Positions 3,001-53,541 of a stretch of 64,000 nt of DNA are shown here, piece after piece; the first letter of the stretch is position 1, and every line of letters begins with the position of its first letter. The DNA is from a virus, in IMG/VR virus record IMGVR_UViG_3300045988_161046, positions 1 through 64,000 of that record; one strand, 5' to 3'. The notes below the pieces were generated by a model. The model saw nothing but the letters and a program-made list of their open reading frames with translations. It was not told the DNA's origin and searched no databases. A program made the translations under genes and the position numbers.

Positions 3001-4751
3001 GATGCAGAACCGAGAGCCAACAGCTGGTCAGCAGTGATACCTGCAGTACGGCTCACACCGGTCAATCTCTTGGCAAACTCTACAATATTGGTAGATGTAG
3101 AAGTAGATGTAGAAGACAACTTGAACATAGCCGAACCCGTAGCAAGCATCGCTTTTTCGATACCCATCTTCGGGATAAGACCCATCGTTTCCACCATCTT
3201 AGAAAGAGCCGGGAGCGCTTCTTCTCCCATTTCCTCACCGATGGCTACATTAATCTTATCAGCGGCTTTAACAAACTGAGCCATACCATCCACGCCATAC
3301 TTAGCCATACCGAGTTTTGCGCCCTCGTAGGCAAGTTGAGCCAGGCCATCAATAGAAGTACGGGTGTCTATCTTAGCTAACTCCTCAGACAGTTTGTTGA
3401 CATCCTGCATCGTGAGTCCGGACACCTTACGAATATCCGTCAAAGAAGAAGAATATTCAAAGTTCTTCTTGATAGCAGAAGTAACTGTATCTTTGATAGC
3501 ATTGAATACTCCGAATAAACCCACGTATGCCGTAAGGTTCTTCACTGCCGTCTGCCAGGAATTGCTTTGCTTGCTTATAGCGCCAGTGGCATTATCGATG
3601 TGCTTCTTTAAATTCTTCAGTTCTTTCTGCTTTTCGTTAAACTCCTTGCTTTTGGTGTTTAACTGATTCAGCTCTTCGGAAAGCTGATTGTAAGCCTGTT
3701 TCAACTCGTTGATAGAAGCCTTTCCCTTCTTTCCTCTCTCAATAACATCATTAAGCTGACTATGCGAAAGATAGGTACCTTTCAGGGCTTTCTCCAACAT
3801 AGCATACTGCTGACGGAGCTTTGCCACCTCCTGCGAACCTACAGGCAACTTCTGAATCTGTTTCTGAATAACATCCATTGCTGCCTTAATATCTTCCGCA
3901 GGATGACCGTTAGGGTTACTCAGAATTTCGAGGAGCTGAATAGAATCCATAGAAGCCTTCTGAGCCTTACCGGAAACCGCCTCCAGGCGTTTTTCGATGG
4001 TAGCGAGGGCATCATTATAGGCTTTTATCTGAGCAGTATCAGATGTATCTACATTATCCCTCGCCTGAGTAATAGAAGTCTTAGCGCGGCGAAGTTCGGA
4101 GGCAGTAGATGTTCGGTCTTGCACCACAGTCATAGCCTCCTGTGTAGTCAGCTTGCCATTACGTCTATCCTCCTCTCTCTCCAACTGCTTCAATGTGGCG
4201 TGATTCTTGAGATAGCTGGCATCTGTCTTTTCGAGTGAAGCCACAAGGTCTCTCTGCTGCGTTATGGCCTTACTCAGCCATTGATCAGACTGAATGCTTA
4301 TATTCTTCAGTCCTTTTTCAATCTTCACATATTTGCCTTCCAGCAAGCGCACCTGGTCGCCTACTTCCTTCATCATTGAGCGGATAGCGTTTGCCTGATC
4401 CAGCTCTGCCTCCGACAAGCCTTCGAGCTGGCGCTTGCCGTCGCCCAATGCACGGCGCAGATTGCGGAGTGAAGTATTACTGAGCTGGTTTACCACGCTC
4501 TGCAAGCGTTCATTGGCAGCTATATCCTTAATCTGGGCAGAAGCCAGCAAATCATACTGCTTCTTCAAATCATTGATGGTTGCATCGAGGGCTTTGTATG
4601 GGTCAGTGTTCGGCTTCATGGTTTTCAGCTTTGCCTGAGCCGCATCTATCTGCTCGGATATACCCGCTGCTGTCTCCTGCAACTGCTTCAGTACCTGGAG
4701 CGGCTGCTGACCGTTGAGCGTGATGATAGCCTCTGTTTTATTCTTTGCCAT
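1..4751 (-). CDS. tail tape measure protein, partial (C-terminal part runs off the left window edge)
   Basis: An ATG at 4751-4749 starts MAKNKTEAIITLNGQQPLQVLKQLQE. The frame stayed open wherever I spot-translated it down to position 1. It is missing from the ORF track because the window truncates it. The plus-strand ORFs listed in 10-4638 are shadow ORFs. The product has more than 1580 codons and is Q/A/K/E/L-rich and coiled-coil-like. A hydrophobic block lies around 2250-2500 (...ITLLPLIANYFAAFGIY...ILTAVGVVW). Confidence 0.8.
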   Translation of the reverse strand, partial: MAKNKTEAIITLNGQQPLQVLKQLQETAAGISEQIDAAQAKLKTMKPNTDPYKALDATINDLKKQYDLLASAQIKDIAANERLQSVVNQLSNTSLRNLRRALGDGKRQLEGLSEAELDQANAIRSMMKEVGDQVRLLEGKYVKIEKGLKNISIQSDQWLSKAITQQRDLVASLEKTDASYLKNHATLKQLEREEDRRNGKLTTQEAMTVVQDRTSTASELRRAKTSITQARDNVDTSDTAQIKAYNDALATIEKRLEAVSGKAQKASMDSIQLLEILSNPNGHPAEDIKAAMDVIQKQIQKLPVGSQEVAKLRQQYAMLEKALKGTYLSHSQLNDVIERGKKGKASINELKQAYNQLSEELNQLNTKSKEFNEKQKELKNLKKHIDNATGAISKQSNSWQTAVKNLTAYVGLFGVFNAIKDTVTSAIKKNFEYSSSLTDIRKVSGLTMQDVNKLSEELAKIDTRTSIDGLAQLAYEGAKLGMAKYGVDGMAQFVKAADKINVAIGEEMGEEALPALSKMVETMGLIPKMGIEKAMLATGSAMFKLSSTSTSTSTNIVEFAKRLTGVSRTAGITADQLLALGSASDSLFLMPEVSATAMSKFIVALQKNHNLIEKDLGIQQGTIKNMYAAGHAMDAIVLVLEKMRDKGNMNALGSIFKDLGSDGQRLITAMVTMSKNVDVLKDHLYESKEAFEEATAVTNEYKMQQQSAAGILDRANNLWEKAFVNPDGVESVKAMAQAWYDMSQMILQSPVFKNTLQAALWSVITACKVFITLLPLIANYFAAFGIYKTVSFLRELGKALKAAAAAQTLFNSAAKVNPYVAIASAILTAVGVVWSFAEANREAAAAEAEATRKANSWKKTLNEAAVETSNLNKKLDNYKRMMNEANLSQKERQGLVSRFNRDFRSYIANLGIEIKNVKDLRDHYSELAQEAQRATYYRMREKAKQQALPKYDSDRNAASNVLMEKVRGLGLDKLGVSFQDIDRWVSKGASGTSVFWYLASKLPKNKSGLISGENWKVDNKGFVYRQGYDGRKISPSSSDPQMAFKLRDLLSASRWYTNATHRRGNKEKEIEKAYANWVPEGYTDYPEESPGTLDNNAPGKDALAAAKREARERKQAERDQQRSWRDELKQKQDEASAIMDNVRNFYERQINEKLSQAVSLGRDETEQKFYIEPIKRRMNEALAQVRLAIAGQANTWEEFKKTMDNDLVEKTDETGVNLSQNLLASIQKNNVDALREKMAQLGNSLNRPMNSITSEIFAKATKNQQNNITLEAQQAEARRKIAREHNYTGAVQQSMYDDFNQMGFANPTDFELADEESAERRKKHIIAMYEQARKQIANLYTVDVSSKEGRGLLMQVLFGDDPYALGARIENMLGDNAEDWHVFYNKLIQYSDEYTEAQKKTYDQAKKIAEQMWKVNKRNLANQETLRKMQQESALFGKRTNMWSNLGLGNLTADPEVELMKMKMQMAEDYYAFVFKNSKNKQLLDEADKARHEAELAYVNQMAAAMKNRLSQMQQLVKPIETFGAEVGKAFAEMRNDASSAQEAIKNALKSMLESWGNMALNDVNTQMWKAINDAGAKRAKKK

Positions 4752-9703: not shown

Positions 9704-9985
9704 ATGATAGTAATAAAAATAAAAACATGGAAAGACTGGAAACAGGACTTTCTTAAATGGGTGCAAGCACCTCGGCGCAGTACTTGCAAGGAGTACGTAG
9801 ATTATATGGAGGCTTTACAAAATCAGGTTCTCTACAAAATAATAAACGACACTTGCGATAAATACGGCAATATGCGTGAGGATCAAATTCAAGACATCAC
9901 CGAGGCAGTCGAGAGATGCGTGGCTGAGTGTGCCCAAGAAATACGCAAGCTAATCGATGATTGCCAGCCCGCAAAATTTCTCTAA
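9704..9985 (+). CDS. hypothetical protein
   Basis: Taken from the ORF track, tiled on the same strand as its neighbours. Confidence 0.5.
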   Translation: MIVIKIKTWKDWKQDFLKWVQAPRRSTCKEYVDYMEALQNQVLYKIINDTCDKYGNMREDQIQDITEAVERCVAECAQEIRKLIDDCQPAKFL

Positions 9986-14428: not shown

Positions 14429-15157
14429 TTAAAATGCGTCTTTAATATCACATCCGGCTACTGCCTTATATTCTGCCTTGAGGAAAGAGATCTCATCCTT
14501 CAGGCGCTTAATAGCCTCAGTAGGCTGCTGCCTTTCAAGAGCCAGCTTCCAGTTGCGGTAGGCGTAATAGAACTTGTCGCATAGTTTCAGCTCCTCATTA
14601 GTATACTTATTATTATGCAACATCGGAATGCGCTTTACCTCGTTCAGTTTGCCATCCTCGGTAAGGACAACCAGTCCGGCATAATCGGGAAGAAGGGGAA
14701 GTACTTTTCCACTAAGGTACCATGGTACGCAATAGCAAAAGTAGTTCGGGCAGCGATGCTTTCTTTTGATTACTTCCCGACACTCGCGGTAGATATTCCA
14801 GGCCTTGCCAGTCTTCTTTATATGATAATCAGGGAAAGGCTCAAATTTCGACAAGGCTTTCTCATCCGTTTCTCTACAGACAAAAGTAAGAGAGTGCCAC
14901 TCCCCCGTCTTCAGCAATTCATGCTTCTGCCACTTATGCTTGAAATCGTTCTTGAAATCGGCGAAAGAGATTTTACATTCCACCTCATACCAATATCCGC
15001 TTCGGGTCTTGATGAGCATATCACTCTCCCAGTCGAACACGTATAGGTTTTCTACGATATACGTAGGGTTCGATTTCCAGCCGCGCAAATACTGCTGAAT
15101 AAGCTGCTCTGACACCTGCTCCTTGGTAAGGAGGGTTTGTTTACGCTTTGTTCCCAT
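14429..15157 (-). CDS. PD-(D/E)XK-type nuclease-like protein (MmcB-like)
   Basis: The motif WYEVECKISFADFKNDFKHK resembles the E-x-K core followed by the S..DF..D signature. The family assignment is from memory. Confidence 0.45.
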   Translation of the reverse strand: MGTKRKQTLLTKEQVSEQLIQQYLRGWKSNPTYIVENLYVFDWESDMLIKTRSGYWYEVECKISFADFKNDFKHKWQKHELLKTGEWHSLTFVCRETDEKALSKFEPFPDYHIKKTGKAWNIYRECREVIKRKHRCPNYFCYCVPWYLSGKVLPLLPDYAGLVVLTEDGKLNEVKRIPMLHNNKYTNEELKLCDKFYYAYRNWKLALERQQPTEAIKRLKDEISFLKAEYKAVAGCDIKDAF

Positions 15158-17677: not shown

Positions 17678-18014
17678 AATCTTCTTCTTTTATTTTTTCT
17701 GTAATTGCGATATTTCCGTCTGAATCAATATCAACGCTGCATTCTCCCGTTTTATGCCAGCCATTTGGATATTGGAAGGTTAAAACTTTATCTCCCCTTG
17801 AATGGCGAAAAGAAAGATTTGCCAACAGACGTTTTTTGCTGATCAGCGGTTCAAATGAGCGGAAACGAATACAATCTCTAGTTTGATCATCCTTCTTGGG
17901 AGCTGAAAAATATCTTATCCATGGACCGCCATCGAACCATGCTACGAGATAGATAATAGCATCATCCCTTGCATTTTGAAAGGCAGGGGTAGATAACAAC
18001 TCTTGCTTTGTCAT
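17667..18014 (-). CDS. hypothetical protein
   Basis: Taken from the ORF track. Confidence 0.5.
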   Translation of the reverse strand: MTKQELLSTPAFQNARDDAIIYLVAWFDGGPWIRYFSAPKKDDQTRDCIRFRSFEPLISKKRLLANLSFRHSRGDKVLTFQYPNGWHKTGECSVDIDSDGNIAITEKIKEEDYAR

Positions 18015-48397: not shown

Positions 48398-48583
48398 CTA
48401 TAATGAAGGGTTTTCCTGCGCCTTTAAGGTCGCAGCCTCGATAGCGCGTACAATATCCGTGATATATCTGCTGCCTCCATGTTTTCTTATCCAGTTGTGA
48501 ACGTCATTGGGTACTACGTATTTATGCACGCTGCCCTCGGCTGCGCGTCTGCCTCTCTTATTCGTTGTTTTAATATTCTCCAT
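48398..48583 (-). CDS. small RHH-like DNA-binding protein
   Basis: The sequence RGRRAAEGSVHKYVVPNDVHNWIRKHGGSRYITDIVRAIEAA fits a beta-alpha-alpha pattern. It is divergent from the plus-strand RNA unit. Confidence 0.45.
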   Translation of the reverse strand: MENIKTTNKRGRRAAEGSVHKYVVPNDVHNWIRKHGGSRYITDIVRAIEAATLKAQENPSL

Positions 48584-48677
48584 AAAAATCCGCTTATCCG
48601 TGATGCAGTAGGGCTGTAAATTTATTAAAATTCTATAATAATTCGGGTGAAATGATACAATGTATCGTTTTATTCCT

Positions 48678-48685
48678 TAAATTTG
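48678..48685 (+). promoter_or_regulatory. -7 box TAAATTTG on the plus strand
   Basis: It matches TAnnTTTG. It points into an ORF-free stretch antisense to the surrounding genes. Confidence 0.45.
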
Positions 48686-48704
48686 CACTCGTCTTCGGAA
48701 GGCT

Positions 48705-48750
48705 TTTAATCGTACCTTTATGGATATTGATTTAATCGTACCTTTATGGA
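48705..48750 (+). repeat. two spacerless tandem copies of TTTAATCGTACCTTTATGGA (26-bp period); the second is followed by ATGGAAAG
   Basis: Read directly. Read as CTTTTAATCGTACCTTTATGGAATGGAAAG, it resembles 30-nt class 1 (Cas6-processed) repeats that end in ATTGAAA-N. Confidence 0.8.
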
Positions 48751-48826
48751 ATGGAAAGAGCAATAAAAACTTCCGTTGACGGTCAGACTTTCAAAAGTCT
48801 GTGGATTTAAACGCTCTTAATGAGCC

Positions 48827-48867
48827 AAATTTCTACTATAGTAGATTCGAGACGCCAGACTCGCAGT
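48827..48867 (+). CRISPR. solitary type V-A (Cas12a) repeat 3' handle AAATTTCTACTATAGTAGAT plus a 21-nt guide-like segment TCGAGACGCCAGACTCGCAGT
   Basis: The handle matches the consensus AAUUUCUACU-N3-5-GUAGAU (stem UCUAC/GUAGA, loop UAUA). The orientation agrees with the plus-strand promoter and terminator. There is only a single unit and no cas gene in the window. Confidence 0.6.
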
Positions 48868-48892
48868 GCCCCGGCTTAGGTCGGGGCTTTTT
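48868..48892 (+). terminator. intrinsic terminator GCCCCG-gcttaggt-CGGGGC + TTTTT
   Basis: A 6-bp GC stem is followed by a T5 tract on the plus strand only. It overlaps the stop codon of 48876..49268 on the other strand. Confidence 0.7.
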
Positions 48893-49268
48893 CGTTTCGT
48901 GCATAAACGCCAATTTTATGAAACTCCAACGTCGTGTGGTTATCAGGATAACTACAGTCCTCAAACATAACCCAATAACCTTGCTTGTCCAGGAATATCT
49001 GACCGATTGAGCTTGCAAAGTCCTTTGGTTCGCCTGCCAATCTATTGCATATTATCCTAGTCAAGTCTTTATAAGGCTGTCTTTGTTCGTCTATGATACG
49101 GAAAGAGTATATATTCTTATCTCTTCCGGTAATCGTCAGCGTGGTTATTAACCCTTCGATCGTTCCAACTCTTTTGTATGTATCACCCTTACACTCCAAA
49201 GACTCACCATTATCAAACAATCGTCTTGCAAGAAACGTTGTCGTATTGCTACAAATAATCTCAGACAT
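48876..49268 (-). CDS. hypothetical protein
   Basis: Taken from the ORF track. Confidence 0.55.
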   Translation of the reverse strand: MSEIICSNTTTFLARRLFDNGESLECKGDTYKRVGTIEGLITTLTITGRDKNIYSFRIIDEQRQPYKDLTRIICNRLAGEPKDFASSIGQIFLDKQGYWVMFEDCSYPDNHTTLEFHKIGVYARNEKAPT

Positions 49269-49309
49269 AATTATTCCGCTTAACCGTGATGCGCCTAGGG
49301 CTGAAATGA

Positions 49310-51473: not shown

Positions 51474-52031
51474 CTATGCCGCATCACCTTGCGCATAGCG
51501 CTTATTGTGGCAGGCCTTATATTCCTCCTCGGTCATACCTTTCTCAGTAAGATAATTCTCCCATTGACCTTCACGGATGTACTCCTCTTTCTTTTCCTCG
51601 AAGGTATGAGGAGCGAAGCTCTCAGCAACGTAATAAGCCTCACATCGCAGTTCGATGCCATCGCCTATCCACTGTCCTGATAATAGACGGTTCTCCTCGT
51701 CCGGGTCTTCCTCATCCTCCTCCATCTGCTCATCGAAATGCTCGATAGCGTATTTAATTATCGTGCGGATGTCCTTCGCCCATGAGCTGGTATCGTCAGG
51801 GCTGATATTGCATTCCTGCAGTACCATATTCACCAGCTCGTCGATACCCTTGCGACTCTTGATGTATGCGTTGTGATAGAAGTCGAAAGGGATGATGTGA
51901 TCCAACTTCCAGTCCTTCTCCTCATTGACCGATGGTCGGCCGTATGCCTTGCGGCTCTCTTCTGTTACCTGCACTTCTTCTACATTCTCAATAACGTTCA
52001 TACCGTTCTCTTTATTATTCTTTGCTTCCAT
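51474..52031 (-). CDS. acidic hypothetical protein (start trimmed to MEAKNNK)
   Basis: The ORF track gives 51474..52049. The region upstream of 52031 aligns with the conserved leader motif of the neighbouring genes. Confidence 0.55.
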   Translation of the reverse strand: MEAKNNKENGMNVIENVEEVQVTEESRKAYGRPSVNEEKDWKLDHIIPFDFYHNAYIKSRKGIDELVNMVLQECNISPDDTSSWAKDIRTIIKYAIEHFDEQMEEDEEDPDEENRLLSGQWIGDGIELRCEAYYVAESFAPHTFEEKKEEYIREGQWENYLTEKGMTEEEYKACHNKRYAQGDAA

Positions 52032-52866: not shown

Positions 52867-53484
52867 AGGGTATGTGATAAACTCGGAGATGCTCATCTGC
52901 TCGAAGATGTTGTAATAAGCCATTATTTCCAGGCGATCATCGCCGTTCTTAGCCCCGATTTCAGCCTTCACTATATAATACAGCATGTAGGCAAGATAGG
53001 CTTCCTGACAGTCGCTCGTATGGTTAAATAAGGCTGCACGGTTCCAGTCTTTAATATCATTACTCAGAAAGGACCAGAACCCATCGCTGGAAGAGTGATT
53101 TTCCTTGATCCAGACGGCTATCTCTTCACGGTGATTTCTTACCTTTGCTATAATTGCCTTCTTTGCCTCGCTAGATAACCCGATTTTAACCTGGATGGTA
53201 TCGGTGCTGAAATTATAAGCCAGTGGGTGCTGAACACCTACGAAGGATAATTTAATATCTTTGCAAACATACTGCTGGAGCCAGCGTTCCCACTGCTTGG
53301 TGTATGCCTCGCAAACTGCCTTCTGGTAACTGTCTTCATTGAAGGTGAAATCCTCATCCTCTACAACTTCGTTCCGGTACTCGTAATCTGATACCTCAAA
53401 AGAAGAATCCCAGATAGTCTGATACAAGCCTTCGAAGCTTACCAGGTCGATGTTTGATACATCTAATTTCTTTTTCTTTTCCAT
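52846..53484 (-). CDS. hypothetical protein
   Basis: Taken from the ORF track. Confidence 0.55.
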   Translation of the reverse strand: MEKKKKLDVSNIDLVSFEGLYQTIWDSSFEVSDYEYRNEVVEDEDFTFNEDSYQKAVCEAYTKQWERWLQQYVCKDIKLSFVGVQHPLAYNFSTDTIQVKIGLSSEAKKAIIAKVRNHREEIAVWIKENHSSSDGFWSFLSNDIKDWNRAALFNHTSDCQEAYLAYMLYYIVKAEIGAKNGDDRLEIMAYYNIFEQMSISEFITYPGNNKAA

Positions 53485-53541
53485 AACCTTAAAATTTTAA
53501 ATGTTCTATAATATGTTATTTTTCTTTATTCCCAGGGAATC

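Follow-up and report, generated by a model that had tools for sequence, protein, structure and literature searches.

A Cas12a-type handle in a predicted phage transcript

The window analysed here, a 64-kb stretch of viral DNA (positions 1 to 64,000 of the IMG/VR record IMGVR_UViG_3300045988_161046), contains in the intergenic region 48584–48875 a cassette predicted to specify a small non-coding RNA with repeat-like modules of several CRISPR subtypes (Table 1). Its 3′ module centres on AAATTTCTACTATAGTAGAT at 48827–48846 (+), which holds an exact 5′ handle of a mature Cas12a (type V-A) CRISPR RNA (crRNA) with an intact UCUAC/GUAGA stem, as an initial annotation of the locus had proposed. Neither TCTAC-N3-5-GTAGAT nor AATTTCTACTNNNGTAGAT matches anywhere else in the window; given an expectation of 2 × 10^-4 for AATTTCTACT-N3-5-GTAGAT in 64 kb on both strands (analytic, window base composition), the match is not due to chance.

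The flanking open reading frames (ORFs; 48398–48583 and 48876–49268) both lie on the minus strand, and the annotated placement of the unit, antisense to these genes and downstream of a -7 box (TAAATTTG), was borne out; we take the motif TAnnTTTG/A to be the Bacteroidota -7 promoter. The box lies 142 nucleotides (nt) upstream of the handle, so the predicted product is an RNA of about 200 nt and not a minimal crRNA. The GC hairpin and T5 tract that follow the handle after 21 nt were called by a terminator scan on the plus strand only, again as annotated, and none of the ORFs tested around the locus was recognised as a cas gene, in line with the earlier description. The handle stem-loop is palindromic and both strands match; a minus-strand reading was rejected because only the plus strand is consistent with the AATT lead, promoter box and terminator.

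Table 1. Features of the cassette and of host-spacer matches in the window. L numbers are our designations for loci compared with the window; PAM, protospacer-adjacent motif.
Feature	Position	Strand	Basis or match
-7 promoter box TAAATTTG	48678–48685	+	read directly from sequence
Predicted non-coding RNA, whole cassette, ~203 nt	48690–48892	+	fold and covariation
Closing helix CGGAAG/CTTCCG around the I-B modules	48696–48701 / 48770–48775	+	helices 1–2 of alignment
Type I-B repeat copy 1, degenerate tag end	48703–48732	+	23/30 to L104 array repeat GTATTAATCGTACCTTTATGGAATTGAAAT
Type I-B repeat copy 2 (GATTTAATCGTACCTTTATGGAATGGAAAG)	48729–48758	+	26/30 to L104 array repeat
Type I-C-shaped unit: GT, 7-bp stem, 4-nt loop, TGGATTTAAAC	48782–48812	+	geometry and tag
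36-nt Cas12a repeat-length unit	48811–48846	+	5′ half holds hairpin GCTC-TTAAT-GAGC (48813–48825)
Cas12a mature-crRNA 5′ handle AAUUUCUACU-AUA-GUAGAU	48828–48846	+	exact match, 19 nt
Pseudo-spacer: conserved hairpin, not guide	48847–48867	+	folds of variants after handle
Intrinsic terminator: 8-bp GC stem GCCCCGGC-TTAG-GTCGGGGC, T5	48868–48892	+	terminator scan
Protospacer of L192 spacer 14	9806–9834	-	29/29, PAM TTTG
Protospacer of L254 spacer 9	14543–14569		26/27, PAM GTTC
Protospacer of L273 spacer 16	17778–17806	-	28/29, PAM TTTC
Protospacer of L254 spacer 3	51597–51625	+	29/29, PAM TTTC
Protospacer of L273 spacer 2	53459–53487		27/29 identity

An RNA family conserved in shape

Probing IMG/VR with the exact 19-mer of the handle returned 44 stretches with one occurrence each, of which ~30 share the whole surrounding region with the window and ~13 are unrelated contexts. 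A second, independent probe, the I-B core AATCGNACCTTTATGGAAT, returned at least 119 stretches, mostly further homologues of the RNA, and the homologues found in this way still carry the Cas12a handle. We collected 116 family members in all, and 54 sequences make up the alignment used below (A1). Module order is the same across homologues: promoter, closing helix, I-B unit, I-C-shaped unit, small hairpin, handle, pseudo-spacer hairpin and terminator. A TAnnTTTG/A box stands 5–6 nt before a conserved TCTTCGG start (GTCTTCGG) in 116/116 members, and the terminator (helix 7 of the alignment model) is conserved with few compensatory changes.

The plus-strand RNA of the window folds with -61.5 kcal/mol (z = -3.5, 0/200 shuffles as good; minus strand z = -2.3). 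Imposed on A1, our proposed structure leaves 97.1% of cells paired and has 11 pairs changed on both sides, a result reached by 0/500 shuffles, and slid controls pair only 29–47% of cells. The I-C-like stem, the small hairpin, the pseudo-spacer hairpin and the terminator covary, whereas the Cas12a stem is fixed in sequence; judged from the alignment, the helices outside the Cas12a stem (I-C-like, small hairpin, pseudo-spacer) are constrained in shape only.

Both the window and L059 contain phage-type genes, and homologues of the RNA occur in IMG/VR viral contigs. L059 is a contig of a Prevotella metagenome-assembled genome (MAG) with a phage encoding an HK97-like major head protein, and has only the RNA in common with the window; more broadly, the five ORFs that flank the cassette in the window are without protein homology in 57 of the 115 family loci. 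The modules also vary singly: the I-B unit is present once or twice, L098, L126 and L136 have lost the V-A unit or carry a damaged one, and L097 lacks the I-C tag. The cassette thus behaves like a movable accessory in unrelated phage backgrounds, with independent modules, as would be expected of an exchangeable counter-defence cassette.

Type I-B and I-C-like modules upstream of the handle

The initial annotation counted a single repeat at the locus. This proved wrong: the window has only one V-A unit, and two I-B copies and an I-C-shaped unit lie in the same transcription unit. By sequence comparison the ~30-nt I-B module is a match to a real I-B array repeat, that of L104 (GTATTAATCGTACCTTTATGGAATTGAAA(C/T), with spacers of 34–37 nt), the subtype label being taken from the SRUFinder table of PMC10651486. 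The two copies share an exact 20-nt direct repeat and, at 26 nt from start to start, overlap with no spacer between them; this duplication occurs in the window and in some, not all, relatives. The window tag ATGGAAAG is one change away from the canonical 8-nt ATTGAAAN. Around the copies, closing helices 1–2 are 97–98% paired in the alignment, with 2 pairs changing on both sides, and the relatives L079 and L152 have a compensatory CGGAGGG...CCCTCCG. RNAalifold pairs ATGGAA with TTCCGT instead, so that the 5′ partner of CTTCCG differs from that in our model.

For type I-C we sought repeats of 31–33 nt with GT(C), a 6–8-bp stem, a 3–5-nt loop and the 11-nt tag TGGATTGAAAC/T. The unit in the window has the same 31-nt geometry as the real repeat GTCGCACCCTCACGGGTGCGTGGATTGAAAC (22/31 ungapped; 23/32 to GTCACACCCTTCGTGGGTGTGTGGATTGAAAC), and its stem covaries strongly, with 17–29 double changes per pair at four pairs. 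We found no matching host I-C array.

Two further loci bring together repeats of different subtypes. The metagenome contig L184 carries a 59-repeat I-C array (TCGCTTCCCGCAAGGGAAGCGTGGATTGAAAT) and, 37 nt beyond it, a same-strand V-A array of 6 repeats; none of its spacers match the phage family, and it shows that I-C and V-A arrays can stand side by side in one organism. On L054, a Prevotella MAG contig, an independent solitary composite unit at ~4002–4020 (-) follows a TACCTTTG box, in the order ...CTGGAATTGAAAC (a type I tag), 6 nt, exact V-A handle and GAAGTTAATCGAACCATTGGA (I-B-like). RNAs built from repeats of several types may therefore have had more than one origin.

A fixed Cas12a stem in a repeat-length unit

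The handle forms the 3′ end of a unit with the 36-nt length of a Cas12a repeat. Its 5′ 17 nt show no sequence identity with the repeats (GGCTAGTAAGCTCTAAT...) of the phage-targeting arrays; the small hairpin within this part takes the same position as in many real repeats: metagenomic V-A repeats often begin with a comparable small hairpin, for example GGCTATAAAGCC or GTCTATAAGAC. In the family this hairpin (helix 5) covaries, with pairs such as GTAC/GTAC and GTTC/GAAC in relatives. The TCTAC/GTAGA stem, in turn, is intact in 112/116 members, AATT (AAUU) precedes it in all members that retain the handle, and the stem never covaries, being identical in 53 of 54 aligned sequences; the loop varies (UAUC in 76 members, UAUA in 30, UAUU in 5 and UAUG in 1). 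Cas12a reads the stem of its repeat by sequence and tolerates changes in the loop, while I-C stems differ between systems. A fixed stem with a varying loop is thus how real Cas12a repeats behave.

The same exact handle also occurs as a solitary unit, flanked by a promoter or a terminator, in the ~13 unrelated viral contexts and in several bacterial genomes. This recurrence bears on the possibility that the cassette is a structured phage small RNA with a non-CRISPR function, such as regulation of phage genes, whose resemblance to repeats is incidental. The RNA is indeed highly structured and several of its tags are non-canonical. Three modules nevertheless match three repeat families with their features in the right order (handle 19/19 apart from the loop, I-B 26/30, I-C full geometry), and the Cas12a stem is held in sequence while other stems covary; together with the recurrence of the solitary handle, these observations make an incidental resemblance very unlikely.

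Some solitary or tandem units elsewhere have features of their own. In the unrelated viral contigs L004 and L043 (IMG/VR), a V-A repeat of full length whose loop is UAUA (GTCTAATAATTATTAGCAATTTCTACTATAGTAGAT in L004, with a single-base difference in L043) directly follows an apparent tRNA-gene 3′ end (…GGTTCGAATCC…CCACCA), an arrangement that may indicate tRNA-linked expression or processing of a solitary repeat. L037 (IMG/VR) has a pair of V-A handles separated by 17 nt (36 nt from start to start), which leaves no spacer of normal length, and the same TTTGTTAAA precedes both handles (…TTTGTTAAAAATTTCTACTATGGTAGAT CAGTATC TTTGTTAAAAATTTCTACTATAGTAGAT); this tandem decoy arrangement is unlike both arrays and solitary units. 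A Bacteroidales genome (L053) has a solitary repeat-like unit with a UAUA loop ~470 nt past the end of its own V-A array, the loop of which is UGUU. With its own TTTCTTTG box and terminator, this unit could be a host CreR-like regulatory crRNA-like RNA or an integrated decoy.

A hairpin in the position of the spacer

The 21-nt segment between handle and terminator had been annotated as a possible guide. It is not spacer-like. In all homologues that retain the handle, a hairpin starts 1–2 nt past GTAGAT, and its stems fall into at least six unrelated sequences, including GAGCC/GGCTC, GAGTC/GACTC, GAGACC/GGTCTY and CAGAC/GTCTG. The hairpin of the window (GAGAC...GACTC) is among the weakest, at -3.3 kcal/mol with one A.A mismatch, and the start of the segment is fairly conserved, with TCGAG after the handle in most members. 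Since the shape is kept through compensatory changes, the segment is not an acquired spacer, and we refer to it as a pseudo-spacer.

Were it nonetheless a real guide supplied by the phage, host Cas12a would be directed to cut a host gene, a plasmid or a rival phage. Archaeal viruses are known to carry mini-arrays aimed at competitors, for example those of the Saccharolobus portogloboviruses SPV1/SPV2 (PMC11656645), and the window resembles them in having CRISPR components, including a guide-length segment after the handle, in a virus without cas genes. Those mini-arrays, however, place at least two repeats of one type around a competitor-matching spacer, whereas the segments between repeats in the window are structural, with no detectable target: the V-A repeat is single, the I-B copies have nothing between them, and our searches yielded neither two same-type repeats with a normal-length spacer nor a PAM-adjacent spacer target. 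The commonest pseudo-spacer joined to a TTTV PAM has zero matches in IMG/VR (2.9 million viral contigs), and a 16-mer of the window pseudo-spacer has six IMG/VR matches only, in unrelated GC-rich contigs and all without a PAM. With the segment conserved as structure, the one-spacer mini-array that the initial annotation had offered as an option is disfavoured, and hijacking of host Cas12a by a phage guide is highly improbable.

A subtler role for the segment is that of a Cracr-type regulator, in which handle and pseudo-spacer load Cas12a and steer it, without cleavage, to a partially matching cas12a or toxin promoter, coupling repression to titration. In CracrVA1, a 21-nt spacer-like segment matches 10 nt of the cas12a promoter beside a PAM and Cas12a becomes its own repressor (bioRxiv 10.1101/2024.10.29.618823). 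The unit in the window has the same architecture (a single V-A repeat-like unit in a phage, an intact 19–20-nt handle, a ~21-nt spacer-like segment and an intrinsic, rho-independent terminator), and the fair conservation of the bases after the handle also speaks for this reading. The 10-nt PAM-flanked cas12a-promoter match that CracrVA1 needs is, however, absent from the host loci searched, which amount to ~1.0 Mb. There the main pseudo-spacer variants have no TTTV-flanked match of 8 nt or more, and three rarer variants have isolated 8–9-nt matches in unrelated loci, at chance level. The longest seed runs (≤6 nt) equal the level of shuffled sequence in five loci of the targeting lineage (L254, L181, L192, L189 and L216); the cas12a upstream regions of L254 and L181 were part of this comparison. 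Thus no PAM-flanked target for the annotated guide emerged beyond chance, in viral contigs or in host loci. The pseudo-spacer sequence is, moreover, wholly replaced between sub-groups while the seed-burying hairpin is kept, which fits a structural constraint better than a target constraint. We consider Cracr-type steering unlikely; the compensatory changes, taken with the lack of PAM-flanked targets, favour a self-folded pseudo-guide without a target.

Cas12a arrays that target the phage

We scanned metagenomes for Cas12a arrays, defined as two handles 35–60 nt apart with one loop base left free in the pattern, and obtained at least 120 loci. More than 120 metagenomic arrays carry the handle AATTTCTACTATNGTAGAT with loops UAUU, UAUC or UAUG (106, 9 and 2 loci, respectively). 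Comparison of 1644 array spacers with the window and the phage loci revealed the protospacers in the window listed in Table 1, two of them perfect, and of the top 22 spacer matches, 10 have a TTTV PAM. Related arrays, including that of L189, match relatives of the window. The repeat of the targeting arrays reads GGCTAGTA(A/T)GC(T/C)…AAT followed by AATTTCTACTATTGTAGAT, with small differences in the 5′ half.

Among the targeting loci, L254 encodes a complete Cas12a of 1274 aa in which all five Cpf1/Cas12a Pfam domains are present, followed by Cas1 and an array of 43 repeats; the closest named relatives of this protein are Cas12a sequences labelled Prevotella sp. (79–81% identity). The window-matching spacers in L192, L254 and L273, together with the complete Prevotella-like Cas12a of L254, point to a Prevotella-like host in which an active Cas12a targets the phage. 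A host with Cas12a and a corresponding handle, on which the initial annotation had made its interpretation depend, is therefore at hand: L254 has a complete cas12a, a handle identical but for its loop (UAUU) and a spacer with a perfect (29/29) match to the window. A scan of GTDB genomes with the exact 19-mer returned only solitary units and single variant repeats.

Terminal host spacers antisense to type I repeats

In L192 (-), L254 (+), L181 (-), L216 (-) and L210 (+), all Cas12a arrays whose lineage targets the phage, the last V-A repeat is followed by a leader-distal spacer, AATTCCATAAAGGT(T/G)C(G/T)ATT..., that is the reverse complement of the I-B repeat core and begins exactly past a would-be TTTC PAM in the reversed repeat. 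L210 has two such terminal spacers in tandem, of which one is directed at the I-B repeat and the other at an I-C repeat (AATCCACGCACCC...). Such anti-repeat spacers occur in 5 of 120 arrays, in the last position every time, and from their sequence would target either phage repeat-mimic DNA or the host's own arrays. The I-B tag of the phages varies at the very base that would form position 1 of the protospacer of this terminal spacer.

These spacers also touch on a role at the level of DNA, in which the repeat copies would serve as sites of recombination with host arrays or as traps for spacer integration. Consistent with this, the core of the repeat-like DNA is identical to host array repeats, and the I-B repeat sequence is what the anti-repeat spacers of host Cas12a arrays address. 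A DNA site does not, however, readily explain a strand-specific promoter and terminator conserved in all members, RNA helices preserved by compensatory changes and modules that all lie on one strand, and we regard such a role as extremely improbable.

Neighbouring genes and repeats

Searches of the neighbouring and large ORFs against PHROGs and Pfam gave nothing informative beyond a sliding-clamp-like protein and a weak terminase match, and no known anti-CRISPR (Acr) or anti-CRISPR-associated (Aca) protein was found among those examined. An Rfam scan of the whole window returned no family, no tRNA genes were found in the window, and INPHARED phages contain no near-identity match to its 47–51-kb region. 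The 61-aa ORF at 48398–48583 (-), divergent from the RNA promoter, accompanies the cassette in 50 of 115 related loci at 42–90% identity. It has no Pfam or PHROG match; by eye its sequence looks like that of a small DNA-binding protein of the ribbon-helix-helix kind, and it may regulate the cassette.

The window holds exactly two copies (48589–48606 and 49275–49292; 0.11 expected) of an 18-nt direct repeat, TCCGCTTA(T/A)CCGTGATGC. Read on the minus strand, either gene bordering the cassette has one copy just upstream of its start codon, and the pair brackets a 686-bp unit made up of the RNA and a 130-aa ORF. The repeat may represent a common leader or regulatory motif, or else a remnant of an insertion.

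Discussion

We propose that the Cas12a-like unit is the 3′ module of a ~200-nt phage RNA that acts as a multi-subtype RNA anti-CRISPR of the Racr type, a reading to which, on the sequence evidence, we assign a probability of about 0.6. Of the options raised by the initial annotation, that of a repeat mimic acting as an RNA anti-CRISPR has become better supported, through a stem and AAUU fixed in 112 of 116 members, hosts that target the phage, and a conserved promoter and terminator; its function, comprising transcription, Cas binding, processing and inhibition, consists of steps that we infer. The RNA at 48690–48892 would be made in quantity during infection of a Prevotella host. One or two I-B repeats would be held in a loop closed by a helix, and the equivalent of a 36-nt Cas12a repeat would present a hairpin in the place of the spacer. 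Cas12a would bind the handle, probably cutting just 5′ of AAUUUCUAC, and, loaded with a self-folded and target-less pseudo-guide, would be titrated away from real crRNAs. The I-B module would likewise titrate Cas6b/Cascade and the I-C module Cas5c/Cascade.

The nearest precedents for the proposed decoy are RacrVA1-3 (Camara-Wilpert et al. 2023, PMC10651486), whose solitary V-A repeats act as inhibitors of the Moraxella Cas12a. As there, the window has a solitary Cas12a repeat-like unit, located between genes of a mobile element and predicted to be expressed as a small RNA in a host with the cognate V-A subtype, with sequestration of the Cas protein as the proposed outcome. Unlike RacrVA1-3, the RNA has a conserved hairpin after the handle, is fused to I-B and I-C-like copies and belongs to a Bacteroidota (Prevotella) host. 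Cracrs that share an array are stated to be directed, in every case, at variants of one type, and their listed hosts are Pseudomonadota, Bacillota and Actinomycetota only, with no Bacteroidota (bioRxiv 10.1101/2024.10.29.618823); the RNA described here differs from them in combining repeat-like modules of three subtypes from both CRISPR classes.

The I-B module has been catalogued before, by sequence, in the SRUFinder table (PMC10651486). The portion of that table available lists near-identical I-B solitary units in gut phage contigs, one of them 100% identical to repeat I-B:14176, and includes the module of this RNA family, for example as TTTCAATCGTACCTTTATGGAATAGAAAG in UGV-GENOME-0370615 and TTTTAATCGTACCTTTATGGAATTGAAA in DTR_873174. 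Among the entries listed, these contigs have an I-B entry only, with neither TCTACTATAGTAGAT nor the I-C-like unit of the family. Taken alone, the V-A unit is a further example of the known Racr/Cracr class. The joining of I-B, I-C-like and V-A mimics in one transcript looks like a new combination, with no counterpart in the literature searched. To our knowledge, RNA anti-CRISPRs were described only in 2023 and have so far been single-type repeat copies, or arrays against variants of one type.

Several observations weigh against the decoy proposal. For V-A, the sequence match to real repeats is confined to the 3′ 19 nt, whereas the validated RacrVA1 and RacrVA2 of Moraxella prophages copy the 36-nt host repeat at 36/36 and 34/36 (PMC10651486). 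The arrays that target the window use a UAUU loop and the window handle has UAUA; among the metagenome arrays and GTDB genomes, no array uses UAUA as its standard repeat, and it appears in single variant repeats only. V-A systems with CreR autoregulation, moreover, resist simple sequestration (bioRxiv 10.1101/2024.10.29.618823). For the type I modules, the canonical I-B tag ATTGAAA is present in only 38 of 116 members, most members having ATAGAAA or ATGGAAA, and the I-C tag, although conserved, has G in only ~4/116, with T, C or A in nearly all; such non-canonical tags could weaken Cascade binding. The I-C assignment rests on shape and the 11-nt tag. The spacers of the I-B (L104) and I-C (L184) arrays gave only short chance matches to the window and the phage loci, and a second I-B array scan, of viral contigs, returned L104 alone; I-B and I-C systems in the same host are conjectural.

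A wider version of the decoy proposal can be put forward only tentatively. In it the RNA would be a polyvalent decoy that disarms I-B, I-C and V-A, and so both classes, at once; the cassette would move between unrelated Prevotella phages; hosts would answer by fixing Cas12a spacers against the mimic DNA, as possibly seen in L181, L192, L216, L254 and L210; and the phage would escape through the tag position that forms the PAM-proximal seed.

If the decoy proposal is true, phages would be able to defeat the whole CRISPR repertoire of a host with ~200 nt and no protein, and RNA anti-CRISPRs would extend to the abundant gut phages of Bacteroidota (Prevotella). The modules would then offer compact inhibitors for Cas12a and type I tools, and the hairpin at the spacer position would suggest a simple design rule for an inert Cas12a "blank". 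If the anti-mimic spacers represent real immunity, they would add a further layer to the arms race between these phages and their hosts.

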